Origin: Escherichia phage GADS24
Direction: 5' to 3' (one strand)
Length of the DNA: 64,000 nucleotides
Sequence record: OQ703618.1
Part shown: positions 32,480 through 43,389 of the stretch, piece by piece
Layout of the letters: every line of letters starts with the position of its first letter
Position numbering within the stretch: the first letter of the stretch is position 1
Notes under the pieces: generated by a model
Databases searched by the model: none
What the model was told of the DNA's origin: nothing
What the model saw: the letters and a program-made list of their open reading frames with translations, nothing else
Position numbers and translations under genes: made by a program

Positions 32480-32842
32480 TTAAAAGAATTTAAATTTTTT
32501 CTTGGTCCGTTCATTAAAAGCTTGTTGTACTTGCATTGTAACACATTTTTCAACATGTGGTGCAAGTTCTGCTTTTCTGTCCTGGTCAAGAACTGCAAAG
32601 TCCATTACGATTTTACCATCAACCCAGTCTAGTTTTGTAATATAGACTATATGATGAGAACCATCTTCAAGCGTAATCAGAATCTCTTGAATGACATTTT
32701 CCATTGCTGAACGGACGATTTTAAGAGATTCATTAAACACTCGTTCTTTGCGAATGTCTTCCCCTTCCGAAGAAGGGGATTCATCAACGATTTCTAGATT
32801 TAAATCATCGAGATTATTCATCGAAATCTTCCATTTCGTCAA
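32480..32842 (-). CDS. 40: gp40-like protein (head vertex assembly chaperone position)
   Basis: 120 aa; assignment by synteny between uvsX and 41. Confidence 0.5.
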   Translation of the reverse strand: MTKWKISMNNLDDLNLEIVDESPSSEGEDIRKERVFNESLKIVRSAMENVIQEILITLEDGSHHIVYITKLDWVDGKIVMDFAVLDQDRKAELAPHVEKCVTMQVQQAFNERTKKKFKFF

Positions 32843-33986
32843 GGTCGTTTTCTATATCTGCTGCAGAAGGAGCATCAGAAGTTTTAACCGGAACTTTAGT
32901 TGTTGCTTTGCAATTAATAAGGTCATTAACAGCGTCATCAACTTCTTTAATAGAAGAGATAGCACCTAGTTTATATTTAGTTTCAATTGCATCTCGGAAA
33001 GGTTTGTGTTTAAACAATGGTCCCCAGAATTCTACACAATCAGTAGCTTTAGCACGCCATGATTTTTCTTCACGAATCATTTCACCTGTTTCTTCGTCAA
33101 GGAATTCACGAGCATACCAACCAGCTTTAGGCTTAACCACAAAACCGATTTCAGTTGCCATTTCTAACAAGCCGCTGAATGGGTCAATACCGCCATCAAA
33201 ATTAACCGTGATTGGGAAAGTAGATTTCTCTTTAACTGTACGAGATTTTTCTGCTTTCAACGTGAAGTCATAACCGGTCAATTCTGTACCTTCTTTAACC
33301 TGACGTTTAGAGATAAAGAATACAGTGTTAGCAGAGTAAAGAATACCTGTACCACCACCCATAATCTCTTTAGGATATAGACCGCCGATTTCCATTGCTG
33401 TATGGTTGATTGCAACACACGGAATATCTTTAATAGTCAGATAAGGAGTCACAATGCGGAACAGAGATTTAAGTGCCTTAGCACGAGACATATCACCTAC
33501 AACTTTCTCGTTCAACGCATCTTCGGTTTCTTTCTTAGATGCAGTATTACCGATTGAATCGATAAAGATAATAACTTTATCGCCGCGTTCAATCGCGTCA
33601 AGCTGATTAGTCATATCAACTTTAAGTTGTTCTACAGATTGAATCGGAGTATGAACTACACGGTCCAAATCAACACCCATTGAACGGAAGTAAGATTCTG
33701 AAGCACCGAATTCTGAGTCATAAAACAAACAGATTGCATCTTTATATTTCTTCATATATGCTGCAACCATGGTCAGTCCAAACAACGTTTTAAAGTGTTT
33801 AGAAGGAGCAGCAAAAATAGTTAAGCCTGATTGCAACCCAGCATTCAGTGCACCACCTAATGCAATATTCAACATCGGAATACGAGTAGGGACTTCATCA
33901 CGATTATTAAACAGCTTAGACTTAGTCAAGTCTGCAGTCATTTTAGAAGTAGAAGCTTTAATCAGACGAGATTTTAAATCAGACAT
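32814..33986 (-). CDS. uvsX: UvsX recombinase (RecA-like)
   Basis: 390 aa; RecA core; N-terminus MSDLKSRLIKASTSKMTA resembles recalled T4 UvsX. Confidence 0.9.
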   Translation of the reverse strand: MSDLKSRLIKASTSKMTADLTKSKLFNNRDEVPTRIPMLNIALGGALNAGLQSGLTIFAAPSKHFKTLFGLTMVAAYMKKYKDAICLFYDSEFGASESYFRSMGVDLDRVVHTPIQSVEQLKVDMTNQLDAIERGDKVIIFIDSIGNTASKKETEDALNEKVVGDMSRAKALKSLFRIVTPYLTIKDIPCVAINHTAMEIGGLYPKEIMGGGTGILYSANTVFFISKRQVKEGTELTGYDFTLKAEKSRTVKEKSTFPITVNFDGGIDPFSGLLEMATEIGFVVKPKAGWYAREFLDEETGEMIREEKSWRAKATDCVEFWGPLFKHKPFRDAIETKYKLGAISSIKEVDDAVNDLINCKATTKVPVKTSDAPSAADIENDLDEMEDFDE

Positions 33987-34085
33987 TGTATTTTTCCATA
34001 GGCATCATTATATTTTACTCATGTTTAAAAGATAAGACGATTATATACTAAGGGTTATACAGCGTTTAAAACTTTAAACAGGCTC

Positions 34086-34634
34086 TTAACGAGCCCATTT
34101 GATAATTTCTGTAATCAAATTATTACGTTCGCTTGCATTAAATCCTATAACTTTGTTAGCACCATCATGATTAAGTAATTGATATGTTTGGATTTTGTTA
34201 TGAATTGCAAACTCTTCAAAATGTGAAATGACTGTATTAAAACCGAATGAAGACAAAGTAATAAGGTCGTCTTCAAAACTTTCAGTCATTTCGTTACGTG
34301 TTAAAATAATTGTGAACACATCATGGTTTTGGCAAAGACGAACATAATCCTGTTCATAAACATCAAGAACCGAGTCCGCATCTTGTCGAATACGTCCATA
34401 AACCCAGTTACTAATATATCCACGGTCTAACAGATAAATCTTAGTAGGGTCTAAATAATTCAACATCGTTTCGAAACAGCCAACTTCATTTCGAGACTTA
34501 ACATCAAAACGTCCATCAACTGTTCGTTTAGGGAAATCAATTTTTACATATCTTTCACTAATTTCCATTATGTCATTAATGAAAGTTGTTTTACCAGCAT
34601 TATCCGGGCCATCTACTAAAATAATTTTAGCCAT
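34086..34634 (-). CDS. P-loop nucleotide/nucleoside kinase-like protein
   Basis: 182 aa; Walker A VDGPDNAGKTT and LLDRGYIS (DR motif) as in dNMP/thymidylate-type kinases; first gene of the modification cluster. Confidence 0.6.
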   Translation of the reverse strand: MAKIILVDGPDNAGKTTFINDIMEISERYVKIDFPKRTVDGRFDVKSRNEVGCFETMLNYLDPTKIYLLDRGYISNWVYGRIRQDADSVLDVYEQDYVRLCQNHDVFTIILTRNEMTESFEDDLITLSSFGFNTVISHFEEFAIHNKIQTYQLLNHDGANKVIGFNASERNNLITEIIKWAR

Positions 34635-34635
34635 T

Positions 34636-35535
34636 TTATTCCTCGATTACGACATCTTCGTATTTAGGTATATTATACGGTGAAGAAATTAAAGCATTAA
34701 AGTAGATGAACTCGCCAAGACCTGGATGGAATACTTCTTCAGGATTTTCGAAATATTGAATCTTCGGCCGTCCTTTAAGAATTTGATAGTACTCAGTTTT
34801 AGTTGGTTTAAAAATTCGAATCAGCGCTTCTTCAGGATACTTATTTCTATCGAAGCTATTATTTGGATCGGTTACATAAAGCGGTTGACCTAATTGAATT
34901 GCACATTCAACCACTTGTTCAAAACGATAGCACGGGTCACTAATTCGAAATGGATGAAAAATACCATCTAGATGAATAGGAGCCAAATCACCTACAAAAC
35001 GCTGCATGATGGAAGGACGTATAACTTTCTGGGTTACGATAATCTTATTACCATCTGCACCAGCGTTAACCAGCACTTCCTTTTGACGTTCATTCAACAC
35101 AGTAGTTTGAAGTGAACGATTAACCGACAACATGTCGGTTTTTAAGAATTCGTCAATATAAAAACGTGGTTTATTAGGGTCTGCAGTGATATTGAAATTG
35201 AATTCTACATCAAAAGCTCCGTCATATCCAGTGATATCTGTTATTAGAAAATCACAATCATAATAAGCAATTAATGAATCAACCACAAATTCATTTTCAG
35301 ACCAGAAATATTTACGAGTGTTATACGCGTTATCTTTATACCATAACGGAACAAACTTAAATTCTGGGAAAAGACGTTCACATTCTTTAATATCAGATGC
35401 ATTACGTGGATATGTAATAACATCACCCGGATTAGCACGGTGCAAATGAAGTTGGAAGTTGCCATCCTTAAGGATAGCATACTCTCCAGTTTCATAAGAC
35501 CGCATACTCAAGATAGGTACGCGGAAAATAGCCAT
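34636..35535 (-). CDS. Hypothetical protein (299 aa) in the modification cluster; possible transferase
   Basis: Immediately downstream of gene 42 with ATGA overlap; Asp-rich YYDCDF segment; no family recognised. Confidence 0.55.
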   Translation of the reverse strand: MAIFRVPILSMRSYETGEYAILKDGNFQLHLHRANPGDVITYPRNASDIKECERLFPEFKFVPLWYKDNAYNTRKYFWSENEFVVDSLIAYYDCDFLITDITGYDGAFDVEFNFNITADPNKPRFYIDEFLKTDMLSVNRSLQTTVLNERQKEVLVNAGADGNKIIVTQKVIRPSIMQRFVGDLAPIHLDGIFHPFRISDPCYRFEQVVECAIQLGQPLYVTDPNNSFDRNKYPEEALIRIFKPTKTEYYQILKGRPKIQYFENPEEVFHPGLGEFIYFNALISSPYNIPKYEDVVIEE

Positions 35536-36251
35536 TAGTCAAGGAATCCTTTAACATAATCAAAATCACGTTCAAACACATGGGCACTTACCATGGTATG
35601 AGTATAATCACCAACTTCTACACCACATTCGTTAGCGATATAATGAAGTAATTTTCCTTGGAGATAAAAATCCAACTGCATAACAACAGCACAGTTCTGA
35701 GAACGCATATGGCAGTGGGTATAAAGCTTACCATCACGAATATAATAAGTCACTGAGTCAGTACATGGATATTCAAGCGTTTCGTCCGAATCAAGCAAAG
35801 CCTGATCAGAACTTTCTAGAATTTGGAACACAACTCTTCGAGAGTTAGGTTTCTCTTTAAGTTCTTTGAGAAGAGCTGGTAACTGGGCCGCAATTCGTGG
35901 ACCATAGAAAGTGTTGAAGTTTGCAGGCAAAGCATCTGATTTCGGTTTAGAAATAAATTTAGCAACGTTAGGATATGCCTTAAATGCTTCTTCTGCATCA
36001 GTTCCGCCAGAAATCATAAATTTCCAGAAATCTTCGGCATATTCATAAGAGATGCGGTTAATACGTGGGTCGGTCATTTTGAATGATGATGGAGTGTCAA
36101 CAACTACTGTCATAGACCCAATTTCATTACAACGTCCAATACGAGAATCAGTTACGAATTCCGGGTTTTCTAAAATCTCACGATTGACTGCTTTAAATGC
36201 GGATTGAAAATCTGCGGCTTTAATATATTTCATTGTGTTATGTTTTCCCAT
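35535..36251 (-). CDS. 42: dCMP hydroxymethylase (thymidylate synthase family), gene 42
   Basis: 238 aa; TS-family core with nucleophile Cys in YPCTDS, RS dyad 20-21 residues later and Asp at the position of TS Asn177 (cytosine specificity). Confidence 0.75.
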   Translation of the reverse strand: MGKHNTMKYIKAADFQSAFKAVNREILENPEFVTDSRIGRCNEIGSMTVVVDTPSSFKMTDPRINRISYEYAEDFWKFMISGGTDAEEAFKAYPNVAKFISKPKSDALPANFNTFYGPRIAAQLPALLKELKEKPNSRRVVFQILESSDQALLDSDETLEYPCTDSVTYYIRDGKLYTHCHMRSQNCAVVMQLDFYLQGKLLHYIANECGVEVGDYTHTMVSAHVFERDFDYVKGFLD

Positions 36252-36292
36252 GTTTACCTCAATACAGTTATTATATACTCAATTCATAAAGC

Positions 36293-36532
36293 TTATTTGA
36301 ATTTCTTAGCGATGTTGATATAACGTAGAGCTTCGGCATCGATACTTCTAAGGACACTATGAAGGAATGCGTCGGCATAGTATTCTAGTTGAACAGGTTC
36401 TTTAATCGCTTTAGCCGCTTTAGTTTCAAACAGGCCCATAAGGGCCTTTTTAAGAATTTGTTCGTTGCTGGTAATTTTAATAGTCAAAATCTCTTCATTA
36501 AGTTGGTGGTTAAAAGTTTTTCTAGAAATCAT
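36293..36532 (-). CDS. Hypothetical protein (79 aa)
   Basis: Small ORF between the U32-like gene and gene 42. Confidence 0.45.
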   Translation of the reverse strand: MISRKTFNHQLNEEILTIKITSNEQILKKALMGLFETKAAKAIKEPVQLEYYADAFLHSVLRSIDAEALRYINIAKKFK

Positions 36533-37689
36533 TCCGGGTACCTCAAAGCGTCGTCAGAGTTAGTTATATCAATAATAGATATAGAATTTTCTGATAACCC
36601 ATTTTTAGATAACTGACGTTTATAATATCTTTCACAATATGTACACGTCGTCCCGCAGATTTCATTAGCACAATCGAAATCTGGATGTCTGAACCACCTT
36701 TTTTCTAAAAAGCCGTCTAACAAAGAGGTTTCAATATTTACCGTATGTGAAAACTCGGTCTCATTTTCAAGAGTGAAAATGGTCTCTAAAGGCTTCCACA
36801 GTTCTAACAAATTACCTTCAAACTTTTCAGAAGCGTATGCTTCAAGAACTTTCAAAATGTAGTCTGTGCTACCTGTACGTCCTGAAACTTTGAATTGAGT
36901 GATACCAATATCATTATAAAGTTTCAAATCTTGTGGACGAACAAAACGAGTTCTCAACCAGTTAAATGGGTCTGTATCACGAGCTTTAATACAGTGCTGC
37001 ATAGGATATCCATTTAAGGATTTAGCATCATCAGCTGTAACATCAGTACTATGGAAAATATAGCAAGAGTCACGATAGCTACAATGTGTTGTATACCCTT
37101 TACCAGCATTAGAACAGAACTCATTTACAAGAACTTCAAATATTATATTGTTCTTATTGCAAAACTCTGCTGCACGCTTCAGGAAAGAAACTGAACGGTT
37201 CTTATGAATTCCACAGCAGACCTTTTTGATATTATACTGGTCATGTAAGTATTTGATTTGAGTTACAGCATCGACATGTAAAATTGTTGAAACTTCAATC
37301 TCAATGTCTTTATTGACTTCACGAACAATTTCCATAACAACAGGGTTAGCGATAGTAATACGCCATACGCCTATTGACCAAAGATACTGAACATAATCCT
37401 GAATAGCTTTCTTCTTCCACTCAACTAGTTCTCTTTTTGAACCGGGATTTATCGTGTTGAGTGTATAGTTAAAGCAAATACCTAATTCGTTACAACGTTT
37501 AACGTAATCTTCTAACATCTTTTTGTCAACGTCAGGAAGCCTAAAATCAGGTCTGGCTGCTACAAAAGCCATTTCTCTTGTAGAGCCGTATACTTCGTTT
37601 ATCAAGCTATTAGGATAAGTTTTATTGAGCTCTACGATTTTATCAAGAAGAGCTAAATCAAAATTCGTTCCGATTTTAAAAGTATTCAT
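36529..37689 (-). CDS. Cys-rich TIM-barrel-like enzyme, peptidase-U32-like (putative Fe-S protein), about 386 aa
   Basis: N-terminal pattern resembling U32 proteins (..EVYGS..ARPDF..ICFNYTLNT), central EVLVNEFCSNAGKGYTTHCSY, C-terminal CGTTCTYC (CxxxCxxC); trimmed to first ATG. Confidence 0.55.
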   Translation of the reverse strand: MNTFKIGTNFDLALLDKIVELNKTYPNSLINEVYGSTREMAFVAARPDFRLPDVDKKMLEDYVKRCNELGICFNYTLNTINPGSKRELVEWKKKAIQDYVQYLWSIGVWRITIANPVVMEIVREVNKDIEIEVSTILHVDAVTQIKYLHDQYNIKKVCCGIHKNRSVSFLKRAAEFCNKNNIIFEVLVNEFCSNAGKGYTTHCSYRDSCYIFHSTDVTADDAKSLNGYPMQHCIKARDTDPFNWLRTRFVRPQDLKLYNDIGITQFKVSGRTGSTDYILKVLEAYASEKFEGNLLELWKPLETIFTLENETEFSHTVNIETSLLDGFLEKRWFRHPDFDCANEICGTTCTYCERYYKRQLSKNGLSENSISIIDITNSDDALRYPE

Positions 37690-37748
37690 TTTTTTTTTGC
37701 ATCTCACGTTAATTGACGCGATGGTTTTTGCAGGTCTTACTTAAATTA

Positions 37749-38150
37749 TTATAGATTCGGTTTATATGATTTAAATGTTTCGAATTCGCCTTTATTCATA
37801 AGAGCTTTGAATTCGTCGGGACGCATAGCTTTGTCGTCGATAATCCAATCATATACTGGTTTATGTGTTAGCAAATTATGGTACTTCAAGCCAATGTTTG
37901 CCAAGTTCTGAATAAGACTTGGGAGAATGTCAATTGCTATACGACCAGGACCTACTGACTTCATACCGCGAGCAGTGTAAAGCGTTATGGTATGCCCTGC
38001 ATCATACAGGGCATTAATGGCAGACACCATTTCGACGTCTGGTTTGAAGTTCACGTAATCACGATTGTTATTCCACTCTGTTATACAATCATCGACATCA
38101 AAACAAAGATTAAGCATGTTTTCTACACGGTGCATTAGATTCGTTCCCAT
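37749..38150 (-). CDS. HAD-superfamily phosphatase (KdsC-like sugar-phosphate phosphatase)
   Basis: 133 aa; motif I FDVDDCIT (DxDx[T/V]) near the N-terminus; overlaps the upstream gene. Confidence 0.65.
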   Translation of the reverse strand: MGTNLMHRVENMLNLCFDVDDCITEWNNNRDYVNFKPDVEMVSAINALYDAGHTITLYTARGMKSVGPGRIAIDILPSLIQNLANIGLKYHNLLTHKPVYDWIIDDKAMRPDEFKALMNKGEFETFKSYKPNL

Positions 38151-39820
38151 TGATGAGTGATATCGCCACCGATTGGACGATAGGAAACACCAGTTTCTTT
38201 ATCAGTTAGTACCCATTTACCAGGATTTTTTGTAATCAGAGTAGCCGTTACAGGTTCTGCCATGTCATAACTAATAGAGCCGTCCTGAAGTACACGGCCC
38301 ATGTTACGTAATTGCTTAGTCAGAAGTTCCATACCTTTATAATATGCGGCTACCGCTTTAAGTGGATTATTCTTGAAATAACCACCTAATGCAATCCAGA
38401 TAATTGCTACAGCCAAATGATGATACTCGTTAAATGAACTCATCTTTCCATATTTGTAAACTAATGGATTGATGTTAATAGTCACATTACAAGTTGTTTC
38501 ATCAATAGTAAACTGTCCCCAGGTCGGATTAGCGTTGAATTCATCATAACCTGAAACAGCATAAAGCACTTTAGCTTCATCGTACAATTTTGGCCCGTAA
38601 ATCTTGGTTTCGCCAAAATATCCACGAGGGTCGATAAACTTGACTTCGCCGTTATCAGTAATCATAGTATTACTGAAGTTCGGGTCACCGTGAATAACAG
38701 AGTACTGTCCCTGAGAACGGTTATGATAACGAATAAGGTGTTCTAAAGCTTGTTTCAGCATTGGCTTCAGACGCCCAATCTTAGTGTAGTTCACATGTGT
38801 GATTTTACCAAATGAATCAATCAATGGTTGAATACTTTCACAACGATCAATAACTTTCGTATAGAATTCTTTAGTGAAATCACGACGAACAGTTTCAGGA
38901 CTTACAAAATAAGTGTCTGTGCTGAATTTCAGTGCATCTAAAATTGCATCAACAATTTGTGGACGAGCAAGACTCGATTTAGATTTAATATATTCAAATG
39001 CCGGCTTACCTTTAATGCGTTCCATTTCAAAGTTATTTTCATTAACAGAAACTAACTGAGGAACTGAATCTGATTTCACTTTAAGATACCATGAAATCTC
39101 ATCTTTCTGAAGAGCTCGTCCCTGTTCGGTTAATGCGAATTTAGTTACAGTTTCTTCACCAATTTCAACTGCATTAAAACTACGATTAAGTTCACGAACT
39201 TCATGAGCTTTTTCAAGTTTAGGCATATCACCTAAATCAATTAGATTCATAAGCTCTGATTTATTGAATGCGCCGCTGTAAAGGAATTCTACGAAATCAC
39301 GTCCTTTGCAGTATTCATGAATTTCCTCATCAGTAGAACCCATATAGAATTCCCAGTCTTTGAATTGATAAATTCCTACAACATTACCACCTGTTGAACC
39401 TACGTTAGTGATATTTTCACCGTCGAAATTATATCGACATTCGTCACCCTTAACATAGATTGCGTTAACATTCCAAGACCATGAACCAAAATCAGGAATA
39501 ATATCACACCAGTTAACAATTACATTATGGCCGTCTAAATCTTTGTGTAATTTAGCAAGAGCATAAGCGGAACCATATGCTTCATCAACTGTACGAATAG
39601 TCACATTGAACCCTTCTTGCTCACAATAAGCTCGAACAGTTTCAGCAAATTTTGAATGAACTACTACAATAATTTCATCTGCGCCAAGGTCAGAATAAAT
39701 TGTATACAAATTGCTCAGAATAGTGTCTTGTTTATAGTTAACAAGCACCTTAGGAATATGATGCGTTATTGGATACAAACGAGTTGCCAGTCCAGCACCA
39801 AGAATAACAGCTTTTTTCAT
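38135..39820 (-). CDS. Bifunctional sugar-1-phosphate nucleotidyltransferase (N-terminal) / sugar kinase (C-terminal)
   Basis: 561 aa; N-terminal ILGAGLATRLYPIT..PKVLV (RmlA/GlmU-type G-x-G-x-R); C-terminal HGDPNFSNTMI..FIDPRGYFG resembling APH/choline-kinase catalytic loop. Confidence 0.7.
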   Translation of the reverse strand: MKKAVILGAGLATRLYPITHHIPKVLVNYKQDTILSNLYTIYSDLGADEIIVVVHSKFAETVRAYCEQEGFNVTIRTVDEAYGSAYALAKLHKDLDGHNVIVNWCDIIPDFGSWSWNVNAIYVKGDECRYNFDGENITNVGSTGGNVVGIYQFKDWEFYMGSTDEEIHEYCKGRDFVEFLYSGAFNKSELMNLIDLGDMPKLEKAHEVRELNRSFNAVEIGEETVTKFALTEQGRALQKDEISWYLKVKSDSVPQLVSVNENNFEMERIKGKPAFEYIKSKSSLARPQIVDAILDALKFSTDTYFVSPETVRRDFTKEFYTKVIDRCESIQPLIDSFGKITHVNYTKIGRLKPMLKQALEHLIRYHNRSQGQYSVIHGDPNFSNTMITDNGEVKFIDPRGYFGETKIYGPKLYDEAKVLYAVSGYDEFNANPTWGQFTIDETTCNVTININPLVYKYGKMSSFNEYHHLAVAIIWIALGGYFKNNPLKAVAAYYKGMELLTKQLRNMGRVLQDGSISYDMAEPVTATLITKNPGKWVLTDKETGVSYRPIGGDITHQWERI

Positions 39821-39861
39821 GTTGTGGTCCTCATTGGTAAGTAGGAGTATTGTACACTATT

Positions 39862-40005
39862 CTAGTTAAAGCATTCATACTTTGCTTGTAGTCCAATCAT
39901 AATCCATCCAATTACAAGTGTTGGAATCATTACTGGAGCCGTTAAGCTCCAGTAGATAGTCATGACAAGCATCAATAGTAAAAGTCCTATTGTTATTGCT
40001 TTCAT
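39862..40005 (-). CDS. Small hydrophobic peptide (47 aa)
   Basis: ATG overlaps the stop of the isomerase gene (ATGA); translation MKAITIGLLLLMLVMTIYWSLTAPVMIPTLVIGWIMIGL; below ORF-track cutoff. Confidence 0.3.
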   Translation of the reverse strand: MKAITIGLLLLMLVMTIYWSLTAPVMIPTLVIGWIMIGLQAKYECFN

Positions 40006-40637
40006 TGTTCGCCTCGTAACATGGCACCTAGTGCACCACCAGGGTGGAACTTAAGGAAGTCATTAGAGGTAAATCCACGTTCAGACGAAAGGTTGATAGC
40101 GAACGTATCGATAAGCGCTAACAACAATGTAGTAGACATTGTCGGAGCTAAAGAGTTCTCGTCAACTTCTACCGCGATGCCTGTACAGAAAGAGTAATCA
40201 AAAAGGGCTTCATTTTCTTGCGGAATGTCAGGGTTACAATGTAACAGAATCTGTTTAACCTGAGGACGAATCATACGAAGATGTTTAGCAACACCTATCA
40301 TTTCTTCGGTTTTACCAGAACGACTAATATGAATCAACACATCATTAGGCGCAATGAATCCTGCATCACCGTGAGAATAATGCCCAGTGTTCAAGTACAT
40401 ACTCGGGATACCGAGTGAAGCAAATGTCTCAGAAGCTTTAGTTGCAATATTAGCATTCTTACCAACACCTGTAATAATTACTCGGCTTTCATAATTACTA
40501 AGTCCTGGGCGTCGAAGAGTTTCTAGAATAGCATTATAACGAGCAGGGTTTTGACTAATTACTTTGGCCATAGTAGCCAAAGAAGAAGCTTGTTTTACGA
40601 TTGCGTCAATAGCGATAGTAATAGGAGTAGTTTTCAT
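40002..40637 (-). CDS. SIS-domain sugar-phosphate isomerase (KdsD/GutQ-like arabinose-5-phosphate isomerase)
   Basis: 211 aa; SIS motifs ITGVGKNANIA and SRSGKTEE, C-terminal FHPGGALG as in API enzymes. Confidence 0.75.
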   Translation of the reverse strand: MKTTPITIAIDAIVKQASSLATMAKVISQNPARYNAILETLRRPGLSNYESRVIITGVGKNANIATKASETFASLGIPSMYLNTGHYSHGDAGFIAPNDVLIHISRSGKTEEMIGVAKHLRMIRPQVKQILLHCNPDIPQENEALFDYSFCTGIAVEVDENSLAPTMSTTLLLALIDTFAINLSSERGFTSNDFLKFHPGGALGAMLRGEQ

Positions 40638-40677
40638 ATTTCTCTCATTTAATTAGTTTACCGTCCATGGTATTATA

Positions 40678-43389
40678 TCAAAAATCGAACATATCGAACA
40701 GAGATGCTTTCTTCTCGTAATCGAGTTTCGCCGCTGATGTGAATCCTTCAAGTGGTTTAATAAATGTCTTCTCAAGGAGAACAGTGTAGTCCATCCAATG
40801 AAGTACGTCGTCTTTAATTAAATCTGTGATTTCAGTACCAGAAGGCCATGCGATACATTTATCACCGAATGGGTTTCCTTCACGTAAAGGCAGAACATAT
40901 ACTTTTTCACCTTCTACAACTTGCGGTGCATCGATATTACCTTTGATAGCTCTGTTATATGTCAGAATTCCACGAATATGGAACGGACATTTAGGACCAG
41001 GGAATCCACCAACGTCATATTTAGCAATGTTATTCGCAGAAGATACCGACGCGATGCTAATATAATTCAATTGACGGAATTCTTTTTCAAACTCTTTAAA
41101 ATATTCTTGTAATGATTCTTCACCTTCTTGAAGCATACGGCGAATACATTCTTTAAGAGCTTTCTGTACTGCTTTAGGGGTCGAAGATTTCTGAGTCTCT
41201 AGACCCATGATTTTGAGTTTAGGCTCAGCGTAACGAGTACCTTCCATATCCCACACGTTTAATGCATAACGTTTCTTACCAGTCCAGAATCCACCAATAC
41301 CTTTAGAACCGAGTGGAGGACCAGCGATAGCTTCTCGGTCCATGAACATTAAGTGTTGTTTATTGTTCATGTATTCACACATTTCACGGAAACCTCTATC
41401 AATAGCTGGTTCCATACGTTCACGTGCAAACTTATCTAAGAAGTCTACCCAATGGTTGGTATCACGGAATTTAGATTCACCAACCTTATCAATAATTTTA
41501 TCAGCAGATACGTAAATAGAGTCTGTATCACCATAAAGAACGAAAGCTTCACCTTCTGTGCCACAAACTTCATTCAGATATTCATTAACTTTACGTTCAA
41601 TCCACTGTAAAGCCATTTGCCCGAATGTTGTGATTGCAGTAGCATTACGCAAATCATAATAACGGAACCAAACGTTGCCAAGTGCACCATAAAGTGAGTT
41701 GATAAGCAATTTACGGTTAATTTGGGCAGTCATACCTGCAACTTCAGTACGTTGAGCTCTAAACAACATTTCATTAAGAGATTTAGCAGACAACTTTTTA
41801 ATCTTTTCTTTAATCTCATCACTGAAGTCGAAACGATAATCAACATCTAACGGTTCGTCAACAGAAAGATTAGGATTATGCAATGCCTCTTTAATTATTT
41901 CACCGTTACGTTGAGCCGCAAGCATATAACCTTTATGTTCTTTACGTTGATTAAAGACTTTAGTGATTTCAGTTGGAACAACACCGTCACGGTCTTTATA
42001 ATACATCATGCCGTTAGGAGAACAACTGTACACATCAGAAGGTCGTTCAGCAACAGCGTTAATATAATCATGCAATGGAGCTACTTTAAACGTTCCTGCT
42101 ATTGTTTCTGGGCTAATATTCACTTGGCGAATAATACTTGGATACAGAGATGTGAGGTCGAAGCTCATCACATATTTGTATCGATTTGGAATAGGTTCCT
42201 TAACAAAAGCGCCAGGATAAGGTTGAACCGGATGAGAACGACCTTGTGGAATCACCTTGTTCTGCTCTTTAAGGCTATTAAAAATAATAGCATCCCATGT
42301 TTTAATAGGGCTAAACACAGATTGAATCTGTATCTTAGCATAATAACCCATGTCCAAGCTCAAGTTAATGAACTGACGTTTACCATCAATTTGCAATACA
42401 CGATACACGTCGATAATGTTATAAGAAATATATCGTTGGTGATTGCTTTCACGAAGCTTAGAAATAGGGCCGTCATATTTCAGTTTACCAACGTTCAATT
42501 CAAATTCTGAAATGTAATCCAGAGAATACGACGGTTGATTAGTAAAAGAGAATTTTTTGTAAAGGTCAATGTAATCAAGAACAGAGATACCGAACAATGT
42601 AATGATTTCACGAGAACCATACATGTTTTCGATAACTTTAACACGTGTTTTACGATGCGGTGATAAACGTTTCGCAGTAGATTCGCCAAAAATATTCTTG
42701 ATTCGGTTATACACATATGGAATATCAAATGACTCAACGTTCCATCCAGTCAAAATGACAGGAGTTTTCTGTTGCCAGAAGTTGAGATATTCCATCAACA
42801 ATTCTTTTTCATTATCGAACGGCATATAAACGATTTTGTCGATAATTTCGGATGGAACTTCATCACCACCTTGTTCTTGAAGCTTAGCAGCAATTTCGAT
42901 AGACCATTCTTCCACATTACCATATGGAGAATTCAAAAGGTCAAATACGTAGAACCTGTCGTCAATTGAGTCATAATGGGTGATAGCATCAATTGGATGT
43001 TTTGCTTGTGACGGCTCAGGGAACCCGTCTGGAGATGTTACTTCGATGTCGAAGTTAGCCACACGAATTTTTGTATGGTCGTATTTGATTTCATAGTTAT
43101 AAGTGTCAGACAAATACGCCAATTTGAAATCGTCCATGCCAAGTGCTTCAAGTCCGATATCTTCCATGCGTTTAATCCATTGGGAGGCATCACGCATATT
43201 GGCGAACAACTTACGAGTACACGGCTTACCGTAGATATCGAAATATTTCGTAGCCTGACTTTCCGGACAATGAGCAAACAGTGATGGTTTATATTCTACT
43301 TCACGAGTACGTTCACGGCCATTAGAATCGATGTAACGTTCAAAAATTGAATCACCAATCTGTTCAACCGTTAAGTAAAATTCTTTCAT
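40678..43389 (-). CDS. 43: DNA polymerase gp43 (family B)
   Basis: 903 aa; exo motifs FDIEV, pol motifs DTDS and KxxxNSxYG; N-terminus MKEFYLTVEQIGDSIFERYIDSNGRERTREVEYKPSLFAHCPE matches recalled RB69 polymerase. Confidence 0.95.
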   Translation of the reverse strand: MKEFYLTVEQIGDSIFERYIDSNGRERTREVEYKPSLFAHCPESQATKYFDIYGKPCTRKLFANMRDASQWIKRMEDIGLEALGMDDFKLAYLSDTYNYEIKYDHTKIRVANFDIEVTSPDGFPEPSQAKHPIDAITHYDSIDDRFYVFDLLNSPYGNVEEWSIEIAAKLQEQGGDEVPSEIIDKIVYMPFDNEKELLMEYLNFWQQKTPVILTGWNVESFDIPYVYNRIKNIFGESTAKRLSPHRKTRVKVIENMYGSREIITLFGISVLDYIDLYKKFSFTNQPSYSLDYISEFELNVGKLKYDGPISKLRESNHQRYISYNIIDVYRVLQIDGKRQFINLSLDMGYYAKIQIQSVFSPIKTWDAIIFNSLKEQNKVIPQGRSHPVQPYPGAFVKEPIPNRYKYVMSFDLTSLYPSIIRQVNISPETIAGTFKVAPLHDYINAVAERPSDVYSCSPNGMMYYKDRDGVVPTEITKVFNQRKEHKGYMLAAQRNGEIIKEALHNPNLSVDEPLDVDYRFDFSDEIKEKIKKLSAKSLNEMLFRAQRTEVAGMTAQINRKLLINSLYGALGNVWFRYYDLRNATAITTFGQMALQWIERKVNEYLNEVCGTEGEAFVLYGDTDSIYVSADKIIDKVGESKFRDTNHWVDFLDKFARERMEPAIDRGFREMCEYMNNKQHLMFMDREAIAGPPLGSKGIGGFWTGKKRYALNVWDMEGTRYAEPKLKIMGLETQKSSTPKAVQKALKECIRRMLQEGEESLQEYFKEFEKEFRQLNYISIASVSSANNIAKYDVGGFPGPKCPFHIRGILTYNRAIKGNIDAPQVVEGEKVYVLPLREGNPFGDKCIAWPSGTEITDLIKDDVLHWMDYTVLLEKTFIKPLEGFTSAAKLDYEKKASLFDMFDF

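Follow-up and report, generated by a model that had tools for sequence, protein, structure and literature searches.

We propose that the gp50 homologue of Escherichia phage GADS24 is an O2-independent, prephenate-dependent C5 hydroxylase of a deoxycytidine nucleotide and the anaerobic partner of gp48, the O2-dependent 5-hydroxy-dCMP synthase encoded close by. This reading is inferred, with no biochemistry behind it, and we assign it a probability of roughly 0.6. The substrate, whose identity is likewise inferred, would most simply be dCMP, converted to 5-hydroxy-dCMP when O2 is absent or scarce. A broader proposal, for which we regard the case as evenly poised, is that phages carry a prephenate-fuelled, O2-independent deoxynucleotide hydroxylase, as a backup in T4-like phages and as the sole route to 5-hydroxypyrimidines in many phages and MAG contigs assigned to anaerobic lineages, with phage-encoded chorismate mutase or DAHP synthase rerouting the host shikimate pathway. 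The window analyzed here is a 64,000-nucleotide (64-kb) stretch of sequence record OQ703618.1, to which all coordinates refer.

Genomic context of gp50

The gp50 gene lies in a DNA modification cluster (Table 1) whose gp48 homologue is 99.6% identical to RB69 gp48. The 5-hydroxy-dCMP synthase function of gp48 is experimentally established, with the oxygen traced to O2 by 18O2 labelling and 5hodC made in E. coli by gp48 alone (PMC13326640). The cluster product is arabinosyl-5-hydroxycytosine and not hmC (PMC13326640), which sets aside the T-even hmC-type modification assumed in the preliminary description of this region; the neighbour called gene 42 there is a gp48-type 5-hydroxy-dCMP synthase. 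The gp52:53 homologue has a Pfam NTP_transferase match (E = 8.4e-10) in addition to weak kinase matches. A scan of positions 34000-40800 for promoters and terminators found matches no more numerous than in shuffled sequence.

Table 1. Features of the GADS24 modification cluster and of the gp50 homologue
Feature	Coordinates	Strand	Assignment	Basis or remark
gp45 homologue	34086..34634	-	Thymidylate-kinase-like nucleotide kinase	RB69 annotation; PMC13326640 Table 1
gp46:47 homologue	34636..35535	-	DNA arabinosyltransferase 1, arabinose onto 5hoC in DNA	PMC13326640 Table 1
gp48 homologue	35535..36251	-	Thymidylate-synthase-like, flavin- and O2-dependent 5-hydroxy-dCMP synthase	Pfam Thymidylat_synt, E = 2.4e-15
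gp49 homologue	36293..36532	-	79 aa, function unknown	ATG overlaps the U32 stop codon (ATGA)
gp50 homologue	36529..37689	-	U32-family protein, 386 aa	Predicted [4Fe-4S], prephenate-dependent, O2-independent pyrimidine C5 hydroxylase (function inferred)
gp50, C-terminal CX4CX3CX2C motif (CANEICGTTCTYC)	36634..36672	-	Predicted second metal or Fe-S site	Subfamily-specific
gp50, central Cys stretch C192-x10-C203-x5-C209-x23-C233	36991..37116	-	Predicted ligands of the catalytic Fe-S cluster	From translation
gp51 homologue	37749..38150	-	HAD phosphatase (AfhF-like), Araf-1,5-P2 to Araf-1-P	ORF; PMC13326640
gp52:53 homologue	38135..39820	-	Bifunctional sugar kinase and nucleotidyltransferase (AfhE-like), makes UDP-arabinofuranose	Pfam; PMC13326640
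gp55 homologue	40002..40637	-	SIS-domain arabinose-5-phosphate isomerase	Pfam SIS, E = 2.6e-10; RB69 annotation

gp50 is a gene of RB69-like phages that GenBank and PHROGs label "peptidase" or "collagenase-like protease". The published pathway reaches its final product without gp50, which Table 1 of the same work labels "Sugar or heterocycle reductase" (PMC13326640). The available literature offers no role past this label, which comes without accompanying text, in agreement with the earlier statement that no role of such an enzyme had been described. The Thomas 2018, Thanatos, Durham and Tn-seq papers are silent on the gene, and a literature search for any connection of U32, chorismate mutase or prephenate with phage DNA modification returned nothing of relevance.

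gp50 is a member of a separate U32 subfamily

The preliminary description had tentatively placed gp50 in the U32 family, an assignment borne out by profile matching, fold searches and conserved residues. Residues 100-292 match positions 2-192 of the 233-position Pfam profile PF01136 (Peptidase_U32) with an E-value of 7.7e-11 and 42.2 bits, against a gathering score of 22.4. Fold comparison supports a U32 TIM-barrel-like fold for gp50, whose top match in fold searches was a U32 protein, Mk0906 of Methanopyrus kandleri (PDB 5D88), which has no known function and is 14% identical to gp50; at 247 aa, Mk0906 is shorter than gp50 and lacks its C-terminal Cys-rich extension. Weaker matches were to generic TIM barrels, including aldolases, sugar isomerases and methylenetetrahydrofolate reductase. 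Residues E185, C203 and C209 of gp50 align with E162, C170 and C177 of TrhP and with E161, C169 and C176 of RlhA, all of which are essential by mutagenesis (PMC6599085). Both cysteines are conserved in 18 of 18 aligned family members, and the position of E185 is held by Glu, with a single sequence having Asp instead. Counting against the proposed function, Ser or Thr replaces the Glu of the KIEGR motif in the gp50 family. The dN/dS of gp50 is 0-0.016, equally low as that of gp48.

These comparisons with E. coli U32 proteins are based on Pfam, a MAFFT alignment and fold comparison. Aligning the gp50 family alignment with single E. coli UbiU or TrhP sequences in hhalign gave probabilities of 4-7%, too weak for use, and searches of PDB chain sequences with gp50 or the family profile returned no U32 match and only one spurious match. 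Among 1.84 billion cluster representatives, the gp50-subfamily profile retrieves only 1631 at E<=1e-3 (426 at E<=1e-30), and the gp50 group is thus considered a separate U32 subfamily. gp50 falls below the NCBIfam equivalog cut-offs for the RlhA, TrhP, UbiU and UbiV groups, so it is not assigned to any of these orthologous groups, and neither Pfam nor alignment revealed C-terminal RNA-binding or barrel domains.

The sole NCBIfam match of gp50 is to UbiU (E = 9e-4, 18.5 bits), and UbiU-V are likewise prephenate-dependent, which leaves room for gp50 to hydroxylate a quinone precursor, as UbiU/UbiV do, in the service of host energy in anoxic infection, or to act on some other aromatic metabolite. 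We consider this very improbable, as the score is far below the cut-off of 440, there is no UbiT or UbiV partner, and the gene neighbourhood is consistently one of DNA modification or nucleotide metabolism. Still less credence can be given to gp50 being the peptidase or collagenase of the GenBank and PHROGs annotations: database labels are all that support it, these are inherited from the family name, the U32 members characterized so far are Fe-S proteins with roles in hydroxylation, and nothing in the gene context hints at proteolysis.

Cysteine motifs

The central Cys stretch is invariant in the 18 family members, and its C203, C209 and C233 align with C169/C176/C193 of UbiU, C169/C176/C192 of RlhA and C170/C177/C193 of TrhP. 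The spacing of CX10CX5CX23C departs from the canonical CX6CX15CX3/4C [4Fe-4S] motif, in that the fourth canonical Cys position is Phe in gp50 and an extra invariant cysteine, C192, lies upstream; UbiV provides a precedent for a relocated Fe-S ligand. In distant representatives, C192 is retained by 125/126 sequences and C233 by 126/126, and only ~60% retain C203 and C209.

The C-terminal CxxxCxxC that had suggested an Fe-S enzyme in the preliminary description is not the canonical U32 cluster site. It is part of a CX4CX3CX2C motif that is invariant in the 18-member alignment, is kept in about 85-90% of the 126 distant representatives and is absent, by alignment, from E. coli UbiU, UbiV, TrhP and the N-terminal U32 domain of RlhA. 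Reading CX3CX2C as a radical SAM motif was rejected, since gp50 has no Radical_SAM Pfam match at E<=1 and the motif sits in the C-terminal tail with a fourth Cys ahead of it, not in the core. Both Fe-S binding and prephenate dependence of gp50 are inferred on an indirect basis only, namely conserved cysteines in the translated sequence and gene linkage in relatives.

Linkage of the U32 gene to prephenate supply

U32 hydroxylases draw their oxygen from prephenate, the product of chorismate mutase. In the T4-like lineages examined, a chorismate mutase gene directly follows the U32 gene except in Mosigvirus and in locus L021. The pair is present in 18 of the 23 U32-bearing T4-like sequences (the window and 22 fetched loci, among which some phages are represented twice), those without it being L021 and the Mosigvirus sequences, comprising the window, L001, L004 and L020. 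Pfam and NCBIfam identify a genuine chorismate mutase in the gene that overlaps the U32 stop codon of Entb_45 and LC53, with CM_2 E-values of 2.4e-10 and 1.7e-11, respectively. Phage chorismate mutase was found in 56 phage records spanning at least 12 host genera and adjoins the U32 gene at every locus inspected; the two remain adjacent in Thanatos-2 despite a rearranged cluster order.

No chorismate mutase homologue was detected by tblastn anywhere in the 64-kb window, where gp49 fills the slot held by chorismate mutase in most relatives. The possibility that gp49 is a diverged AroQ chorismate mutase was rejected: it has no Pfam (CM_2) or NCBIfam match even at E<=10, an hhalign probability of 0.3% against phage chorismate mutases and 10-20% identity to them, and TG1 and 92A1 carry gp49 alongside a true chorismate mutase. 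gp49 is frameshifted in HY126 and has a dN/dS of 0.11.

A second, independent line of linkage to prephenate is provided by phage or MAG contigs unrelated to T4. Two of these (L011 and L034) carry a U32 gene 45-55% identical to gp50 next to a gene for DAHP synthase, identified as such by NCBIfam scores of 221-237 bits versus ~60 bits for KDO8P synthase. In another (L060) the U32 gene adjoins a DAHP synthase-chorismate mutase fusion, and in a fourth (L057) it is close to chorismate mutase. Most of the non-T4 loci gave no match to an HMM built from phage chorismate mutases, and 14 of the 40 have no link to DAHP synthase, glycosyltransferase or chorismate mutase; linkage otherwise is to DAHP synthase or a glycosyltransferase. 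Hydroxylation demand during a burst is roughly estimated, from general knowledge of cell composition, at 3e6-1.3e7 events per cell, or about 6-25% of cellular Phe+Tyr flux, a demand that fits a dedicated prephenate supply better than a role in RNA modification.

Substrate of the predicted hydroxylase

The 40 non-T4 loci, a redundant set fetched with flanks of 6-8 kb, also tie the U32 gene to DNA glycosylation. A gp46:47 homologue lies within the flanks in 24 of them and is directly adjacent to the U32 gene in about half of these 24; the match between this non-T4 glycosyltransferase and gp46:47 is strong (hhalign probability 99.94%, E = 7e-37; BLASTP E = 1e-16). Other genes near the non-T4 U32 gene encode TAGT-type glycosyltransferases, dUTPase/DCD, dCMP deaminase and thymidylate-kinase-like proteins, and NT5C and dNK genes are likewise among the neighbours of U32 homologues. 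Within these flanks, a gp48-like hydroxylase is missing save for one weak case, versus a gp48-like gene within about 1.5 kb of the U32 gene in 23 of 23 T4-like sequences. The modified base in the metagenomic loci could be uracil and not cytosine.

The preliminary description had allowed for action on either the base or the sugar of the modification. Action on the base, in the manner of RlhA and TrhP, gains strong comparative support from the linkage to chorismate mutase or DAHP synthase and to a 5hoC glycosyltransferase, while the function itself is still inferred; no support was found for the sugar as target. A TIM-barrel enzyme acting on a sugar or reducing a heterocycle, for instance one tailoring the arabinose donor as the label in Table 1 of PMC13326640 might imply, appears improbable. 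The gene does lie between sugar-activation genes and a base-modifying gene, its fold matches below 5D88 are generic TIM barrels, and epimerases, SIS isomerases and sugar kinases are often found near its homologues. However, the published route from Ru5P to UDP-Araf is complete without gp50, and the same cluster lacks this gene in Acinetobacter phages and in Dhakaviruses; DNA of DLP3 has been shown, and that of Maestro reported, to carry arabinosylated 5hoC, and no DNA data were found for a Dhakavirus. Such a role would also leave the chorismate mutase and DAHP synthase linkage unexplained, and would sit poorly with best profile and fold matches to U32 proteins and with the retention of the Glu and Cys essential to the hydroxylases.

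Another possibility is that gp50 is indeed a prephenate-dependent U32 hydroxylase with a polymeric substrate, either phage or host RNA (as in tRNA ho5U34 or rRNA ho5C) or DNA cytosines after replication. The only characterized pyrimidine-hydroxylating U32 proteins act on RNA polymers, and the family features and chorismate mutase linkage would fit any prephenate-dependent hydroxylation. We nonetheless think this unlikely, if worth keeping in mind. RlhA (653 aa) and TrhP (453 aa), both already encoded by the host, have additional C-terminal domains that gp50 lacks. The U32 gene is found only within 5hoC-type DNA modification clusters, and its homologues sit among dNMP-level enzymes and DNA glycosyltransferases. 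The presence of a dedicated chorismate mutase or DAHP synthase points to a bulk flux, as opposed to the roughly 1e4-1e5 RNA sites per cell.

Host distribution and oxygen

Homologues of the U32 gene occur in 221 phage records, whose hosts are Enterobacterales or Shewanella among the genera listed. Those of gp48 extend to 57 Acinetobacter and 20 Rhizobium phage records, and neither genus is among the ten listed for the U32 homologue, with seven further first words (12 records in total, averaging fewer than two apiece) not named. Acinetobacter and Rhizobium are strict aerobes. The HAD and ThyA-like genes of Acinetobacter phage Maestro directly adjoin each other, at exactly the site where a U32 module would be expected. 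All ten U32 matches among GTDB species genomes are MAGs assigned to typically anaerobic lineages. Dhakaviruses (e.g., JS98), which also infect E. coli, carry the cluster without U32, so enteric phages can do without the module, and the correlation with host lifestyle rests on few independent lineages.

Proposed mechanism and comparison with known systems

The hydroxylase reaction that we favor would begin with the conversion of chorismate to prephenate, by host PheA/TyrA in GADS24 and by the chorismate mutase encoded beside the U32 gene in most related genera. The U32 enzyme would then carry out a two-electron oxidation of the pyrimidine, with its Fe-S cluster or clusters relaying electrons, as prephenate decarboxylates and its hydroxyl is delivered to C5, leaving phenylpyruvate and CO2; this chemistry has been proposed for U32 enzymes (PMC10990095). 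The resulting 5-hydroxy-dCMP would be phosphorylated and incorporated into DNA, which gp46:47 and gp3 would arabinosylate with UDP-arabinofuranose supplied by gp55, gp52:53 and gp51. These last two stages correspond to published experimental or computational results (PMC13326640), while the first two, and the substrate, are inferred from homology and gene neighbourhood. As of PMC10990095, direct hydroxylation had yet to be reconstituted in vitro, even with RlhA, TrhP or UbiU-V.

The closest parallel in chemistry is RlhA (E. coli YdcP), which forms 5-hydroxycytidine at C2501 of 23S rRNA in a prephenate-dependent reaction linked to iron and Fe-S, the same C5 hydroxylation of cytosine that is predicted for gp50. 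A U32 domain with the essential Glu and both Cys is common to the two proteins, a similarity detectable only at the Pfam or fold level. RlhA, however, modifies one rRNA residue and has additional domains and CX6CX15CX3C spacing, whereas gp50 has a single U32 domain and the C-terminal Cys4 motif and would act on a free deoxynucleotide in bulk.

A parallel for the pairing of gp50 with gp48 is found in TrhP and TrhO, two non-homologous enzymes making one hydroxypyrimidine, ho5U34 of tRNA. TrhP is a prephenate-dependent, O2-independent U32 protein and TrhO requires O2, both being kept where both conditions are met (PMC6599085). That system differs in its tRNA uridine substrate and in its O2-dependent partner, a rhodanese protein, as opposed to the flavin-bound thymidylate synthase homologue of the gp50/gp48 pairing, which is itself only inferred. 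UbiU-UbiV, acting with UbiT in ubiquinone synthesis, are U32 [4Fe-4S] proteins for which 18O labelling identified prephenate as the oxygen donor. Their aerobic counterparts UbiI/H/F belong to the flavin monooxygenases, as gp48 also seems to. UbiU and UbiV differ from gp50 in working as a heterodimer on hydrophobic substrates, with the help of a lipid-binding accessory protein. RB69 gp48 and DLP3 gp80, of the thymidylate synthase superfamily, have the same product and place in the pathway as predicted for gp50, from which gp48 is separated in the window by one small gene, but differ in their unrelated fold, flavin binding and use of O2 as the oxygen source. gp48 also occurs in phages of strict aerobes, a host group missing from the genera listed for U32 matches.

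Making arabinosyl-5-hydroxycytosine DNA by the published route needs O2, yet these phages prey on gut Enterobacterales and, being T-even relatives, presumably cannot replicate with unmodified cytosine. An O2-independent hydroxylase would resolve this conflict between O2 need and replication in the anoxic gut. If our proposal is correct, gp50 would be the first U32 enzyme with a free nucleotide as its substrate, and likewise the first to modify a DNA precursor. The prephenate-dependent chemistry of the family would then reach beyond RNA and quinones to the precursors of DNA, and gp50 would offer a tractable soluble-substrate system for a family unreconstituted in vitro as of 2024 (PMC10990095). 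It would also explain phage chorismate mutase and DAHP synthase as auxiliary metabolic genes that feed DNA hypermodification. The combination of a U32 gene, a gp46:47-like glycosyltransferase and chorismate mutase or DAHP synthase could then serve as a marker set for locating glycosylated hydroxypyrimidine DNA in uncultured phages of anaerobes. The proposal bears on phage therapy as well, because behaviour in aerated culture may not predict DNA modification, and hence restriction or CRISPR evasion, in the gut.

Identity and catalytic signature of gp50

The preliminary description had tentatively taken the gp50 product for a Cys-rich, U32-like protein, and this assignment is confirmed, with E185, C203, C209, and C233 aligning with catalytic or ligand positions of RlhA and TrhP. 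Against the U32 proteins of E. coli MG1655, C203/C209/C233 match the first three Fe-S ligands (UbiU C169/C176/C193, RlhA C169/C176/C192, TrhP C170/C177/C193), E185 matches the Glu required in TrhP and RlhA together with the first two Cys, and the K..GR motif is retained. Ten Cys are invariant in an 18-member family alignment spanning 46-100% identity (C158, C177, C192, C203, C209, C233, C340, C345, C349, and C352). The fourth canonical U32 Cys is missing from gp50; the invariant C192, located upstream, is a plausible substitute for this ligand, and UbiV provides a precedent for a relocated Fe-S ligand. The C-terminal CX4CX3CX2C is particular to the gp50 subfamily and could, we infer, bind a further cluster used in electron transfer. 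Across 126 cluster representatives at greater distance, C192, C233, K267, and R271 are near-universal, the C-terminal Cys are found in ~85-90%, and C203 and C209 in ~60%. With 426 clusters at E<=1e-30 among 1.84 billion representatives, the subfamily is small and distinct. The protein, a divergent U32 superfamily member, falls outside the UbiU, UbiV, RlhA, and TrhP groups and is orthologous to none of them.

Locus and published assignments

Over positions 34000-40700 the window shares 97.5% identity with Escherichia phage RB69 and 98.4% with phage JN02, which identifies it as a T4-like phage of the Mosigvirus group. The modification cluster lies entirely on the minus strand between the DNA polymerase and uvsX.

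Genes of the modification cluster and its borders
Feature	Window coordinates	Strand
DNA polymerase, cluster border	40678-43389	-
SIS arabinose-5-phosphate isomerase	40002-40637	-
Nucleotidyltransferase/kinase, 561 aa, one intact ORF	38135-39820	-
HAD phosphatase	37749-38150	-
U32 gene (gp50)	36529-37689	-
79-aa ORF (gp49)	36293-36532	-
Thymidylate-synthase-like gene (gp48)	35535-36251	-
Glycosyltransferase (gp46:47), 299 aa, one intact ORF	34636-35535	-
Thymidylate-kinase-like gene	34086-34634	-
uvsX, cluster border	32814-33986	-

In the RB69 reference (NC_004928) the glycosyltransferase is split into p046/p047 and the kinase/nucleotidyltransferase into p052/p053, and the window aligns with both split genes across a 1-nt gap. 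These splits have been attributed to sequencing errors (PMC13326640), in agreement with the intact window ORFs. A nine-A run directly precedes the U32 ATG (GTGAGATGCAAAAAAAAAATG, 37690-37707, minus strand); this gene also has an in-frame GTG 18 nt upstream of the ATG, a weak Shine-Dalgarno, and an upstream sigma-70-like match (37775-37748, minus strand). The 41-nt gp49-gp48 gap contains TATATAATA (36269-36277, minus strand), similar to the T4 late-promoter box TATAAATA. Promoter-like matches across the region show no excess over shuffled sequence.

RB69 DNA has been shown to contain mono- and di-arabinosylated 5-hydroxycytosine (5hoC), not hydroxymethylcytosine (Lee et al., NAR 2026, PMC13326640). 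In that study 5-hydroxy-dCMP is made by RB69 gp48, a thymidylate synthase homologue that binds an FMN-like flavin and takes its hydroxyl oxygen from 18O2; the UDP-arabinofuranose route is assigned to gp55, gp52:53, and gp51, and arabinosyl transfer to gp46:47 and gp3. As cited there, He et al. 2026 obtained a flavin-bound crystal structure of the HY126 homologue of gp48 and proved in vitro that O2 is its oxygen source. The only appearance of gp50 is in Table 1 of PMC13326640, as "Sugar or heterocycle reductase" with structural hit 5D88; the text of the paper does not contain U32, gp50, or peptidase as the start of a word, and "collagenase" occurs in that table row only. Its Discussion names RlhA and TrhP as belonging to other, unrelated routes to hydroxylated pyrimidines; the kinship of gp50 to them is not remarked upon. 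The other papers examined on these phages are silent about gp50, and nothing relevant was found joining U32, chorismate mutase, prephenate, and phage DNA modification, with He et al. 2026 and Mahler et al. 2025 outside the scope of both searches; these two papers may address the gene. Within that scope, the earlier impression that no role in DNA modification had been described stands, the literature offering the Table 1 label alone. In the HY126 GenBank record, a protein 100% identical to gp50 is labelled "hypothetical".

Linkage to prephenate supply

Homologues of gp50 were found by tblastn in 221 phage records, all at least 80% identical; every host belongs to either Enterobacterales or Shewanella. 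The U32 stop codon is overlapped, in Enterobacter phage Entb_45 and Serratia phage LC53, by a gene for an AroQ chorismate mutase (CM_2 in Pfam, E 2.4e-10 and 1.7e-11, respectively, over the gathering score, with matches to many NCBIfam chorismate mutase models). The phage enzyme was found in 56 phage records, with hosts including Klebsiella, Serratia, Yersinia, Enterobacter, Edwardsiella, Erwinia, Proteus, Pectobacterium, Providencia, Morganella, Kosakonia, Shewanella, E. coli (EcS1), and Shigella (vB_SdyM_006). It adjoins the U32 gene at all loci inspected; Shewanella phage Thanatos-2 has an altered cluster order, yet the two genes remain an overlapping pair. No chorismate mutase is present anywhere in the 64-kb window. 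Prephenate, the product of chorismate mutase, is the oxygen donor of the UbiU-V pathway, as determined by genetics and 18O labelling, and is needed for RlhA and TrhP function.

We propose, with a probability of roughly 0.6 and without biochemical proof, that gp50 is an O2-independent, prephenate-dependent C5 hydroxylase yielding 5-hydroxy-dCMP or a close nucleotide alongside the O2-dependent gp48. Most relatives would draw prephenate from their own chorismate mutase beside U32. If this reading is true, gp50 would extend U32 enzymes to a substrate class and a biological setting that are both new for them.

The slot between U32 and gp48 is occupied in the window by gp49 (PHROG 8601), which has a conserved YYxDAFxHS motif and is distinct from chorismate mutase. 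It is translationally coupled to the U32 gene via an ATGA overlap and, with a dN/dS of 0.11, evolves faster than neighbouring genes. In TG1, 92A1, PM2, and related loci gp49 is placed between U32 and chorismate mutase, and in LC53 its N-terminus, including the N-terminal motif, is fused to chorismate mutase; a frameshift disrupts it in HY126 and, apparently, in several further Mosigvirus records. An accessory role and gradual decay of the gene are both possible. The most parsimonious scenario has U32-gp49-chorismate mutase-ThyA-like as the ancestral order, with chorismate mutase lost in Mosigvirus, which would then rely on prephenate from host PheA/TyrA, like the host's own RlhA, TrhP, and UbiU-V.

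Distribution, selection, and demand

For gp48, homologues were found in 373 phage records, of which 57 are from Acinetobacter phages, 20 from Rhizobium phages, and some from Agrobacterium phages. None of these three host genera is among the ten genera named for U32 matches, although a stray record cannot be fully excluded, as 12 further records of that search, spread over seven other first words, lie outside those named. In Acinetobacter phage Maestro a HAD gene abuts the ThyA-like gene at the U32-gp49-chorismate mutase slot, and the DLP3 cluster likewise lacks U32. The correlation with host lifestyle is imperfect, since Dhakaviruses (JS98 and relatives) infect E. coli yet lack the U32 module, and few independent lineages lie behind it. 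The U32 gene has a dN/dS of 0.016 against RB69 and 0 against HY126 (22 synonymous, no non-synonymous differences), and purifying selection on it equals in strength that on gp48. An anaerobic ribonucleotide reductase carried by these phages, mentioned in the literature, fits O2-free replication. By a rough estimate, hydroxylation demand is 3e6-1.3e7 per infected cell, equal to ~6-25% of the prephenate flux that goes into the Phe and Tyr of one cell and roughly 100-fold above RNA hydroxylation needs; the cell-composition figures used are assumed values. Demand on this scale would give phages a reason to encode chorismate mutase and DAHP synthase themselves.

Metagenomic homologues

A large metagenomic family, 45-58% identical to gp50, occurs on phage-like contigs (one of 466 kb, several of 194-294 kb) and on ten MAG contigs (assigned to Erysipelotrichales, Bacillota, Oscillospiraceae, Gastranaerophilaceae, two Romboutsia, BRC1, Lachnospiraceae, Eubacteriaceae, and Clostridium), whose lineages are typically anaerobic. 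Among the fetched loci, U32 lies beside a DAHP synthase in L011 and L034 (NCBIfam 221-237 bits, versus ~60 bits for KDO8P synthase), directly downstream of a DAHP synthase-chorismate mutase fusion in L060 (Pfam E 2e-32 and 1.4e-18), and ~2 kb from a downstream chorismate mutase in L057 (E 8e-19). The fetched flanks of 24 of the 40 non-T4 loci, a redundant set, contain a ~330-400-aa protein without a Pfam match, directly adjacent in about half of these, that is homologous to the arabinosyltransferase gp46:47 (hhalign probability 99.94%, E 7e-37, 261 columns; BLASTP E 1e-16). Other non-T4 neighbours are TAGT-type glycosyltransferases, dUTPase/dCTP deaminase, dCMP deaminase, thymidylate-kinase-like kinases, uracil-DNA-glycosylase-family proteins, SIS isomerases, bifunctional kinase/nucleotidyltransferases, UDP-galactopyranose mutase, and epimerases. 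These neighbourhoods suggest a unit recurring across unrelated phages, in which U32 is accompanied by a glycosyltransferase, sugar activation, and often a prephenate-supplying enzyme. A gp48-like gene is within ~1.5 kb of U32 in 23/23 T4-like sequences (the window plus 22 fetched loci), whereas none was detected within +/-6-8 kb of non-T4 U32 genes save one weak match (L035), suggesting, for flanks of this length, that only the T4-like lineage has added the flavin enzyme.

The main rival explanations are that gp50 applies the same U32 chemistry to another substrate, an RNA or DNA polymer; that it is a sugar or heterocycle reductase, as labelled in PMC13326640; that its role is quinone-related, as for UbiU and UbiV; or that it is a peptidase, as annotated. 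All four leave unexplained the joint linkage to chorismate mutase/DAHP synthase and a 5hoC glycosyltransferase. The earlier suggestion of a U32 hydroxylase acting in DNA modification is supported and sharpened by this linkage, by inference rather than biochemistry.

On jumbo-phage contigs of 194-294 kb and a Romboutsia MAG contig of the same gene arrangement (L045, L047, L049, L050, L052, L055, and L062; 6640-6893 or equivalent), an 82-aa ORF without a family match, not detectably a chorismate mutase, lies directly upstream of U32, and a 399-aa gp46:47-like glycosyltransferase lies downstream. Radical SAM/SPASM genes that recur on several metagenomic phage contigs within a few kb of U32 (L006 1-249, L007 12160-13185, L013 5972-7000) could encode a maturase or further modification enzyme. 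A Bacillota MAG contig (L007/L008/L058) carries U32 with a 5'(3')-deoxyribonucleotidase, NMN-type transporter, deoxynucleoside kinase, AlaRS-like protein, radical SAM/SPASM protein, second, very distant U32 (22% identity), and nucleoside 2-deoxyribosyltransferase; the set resembles a salvage-based cluster for nucleoside modification that lacks a gp46:47-like glycosyltransferase. In a Clostridium MAG (L066 3114-7152), a U32 homologue at 30% identity adjoins a thioesterase near a DAHP synthase, and may belong to a secondary-metabolite cluster using the same prephenate-dependent chemistry.
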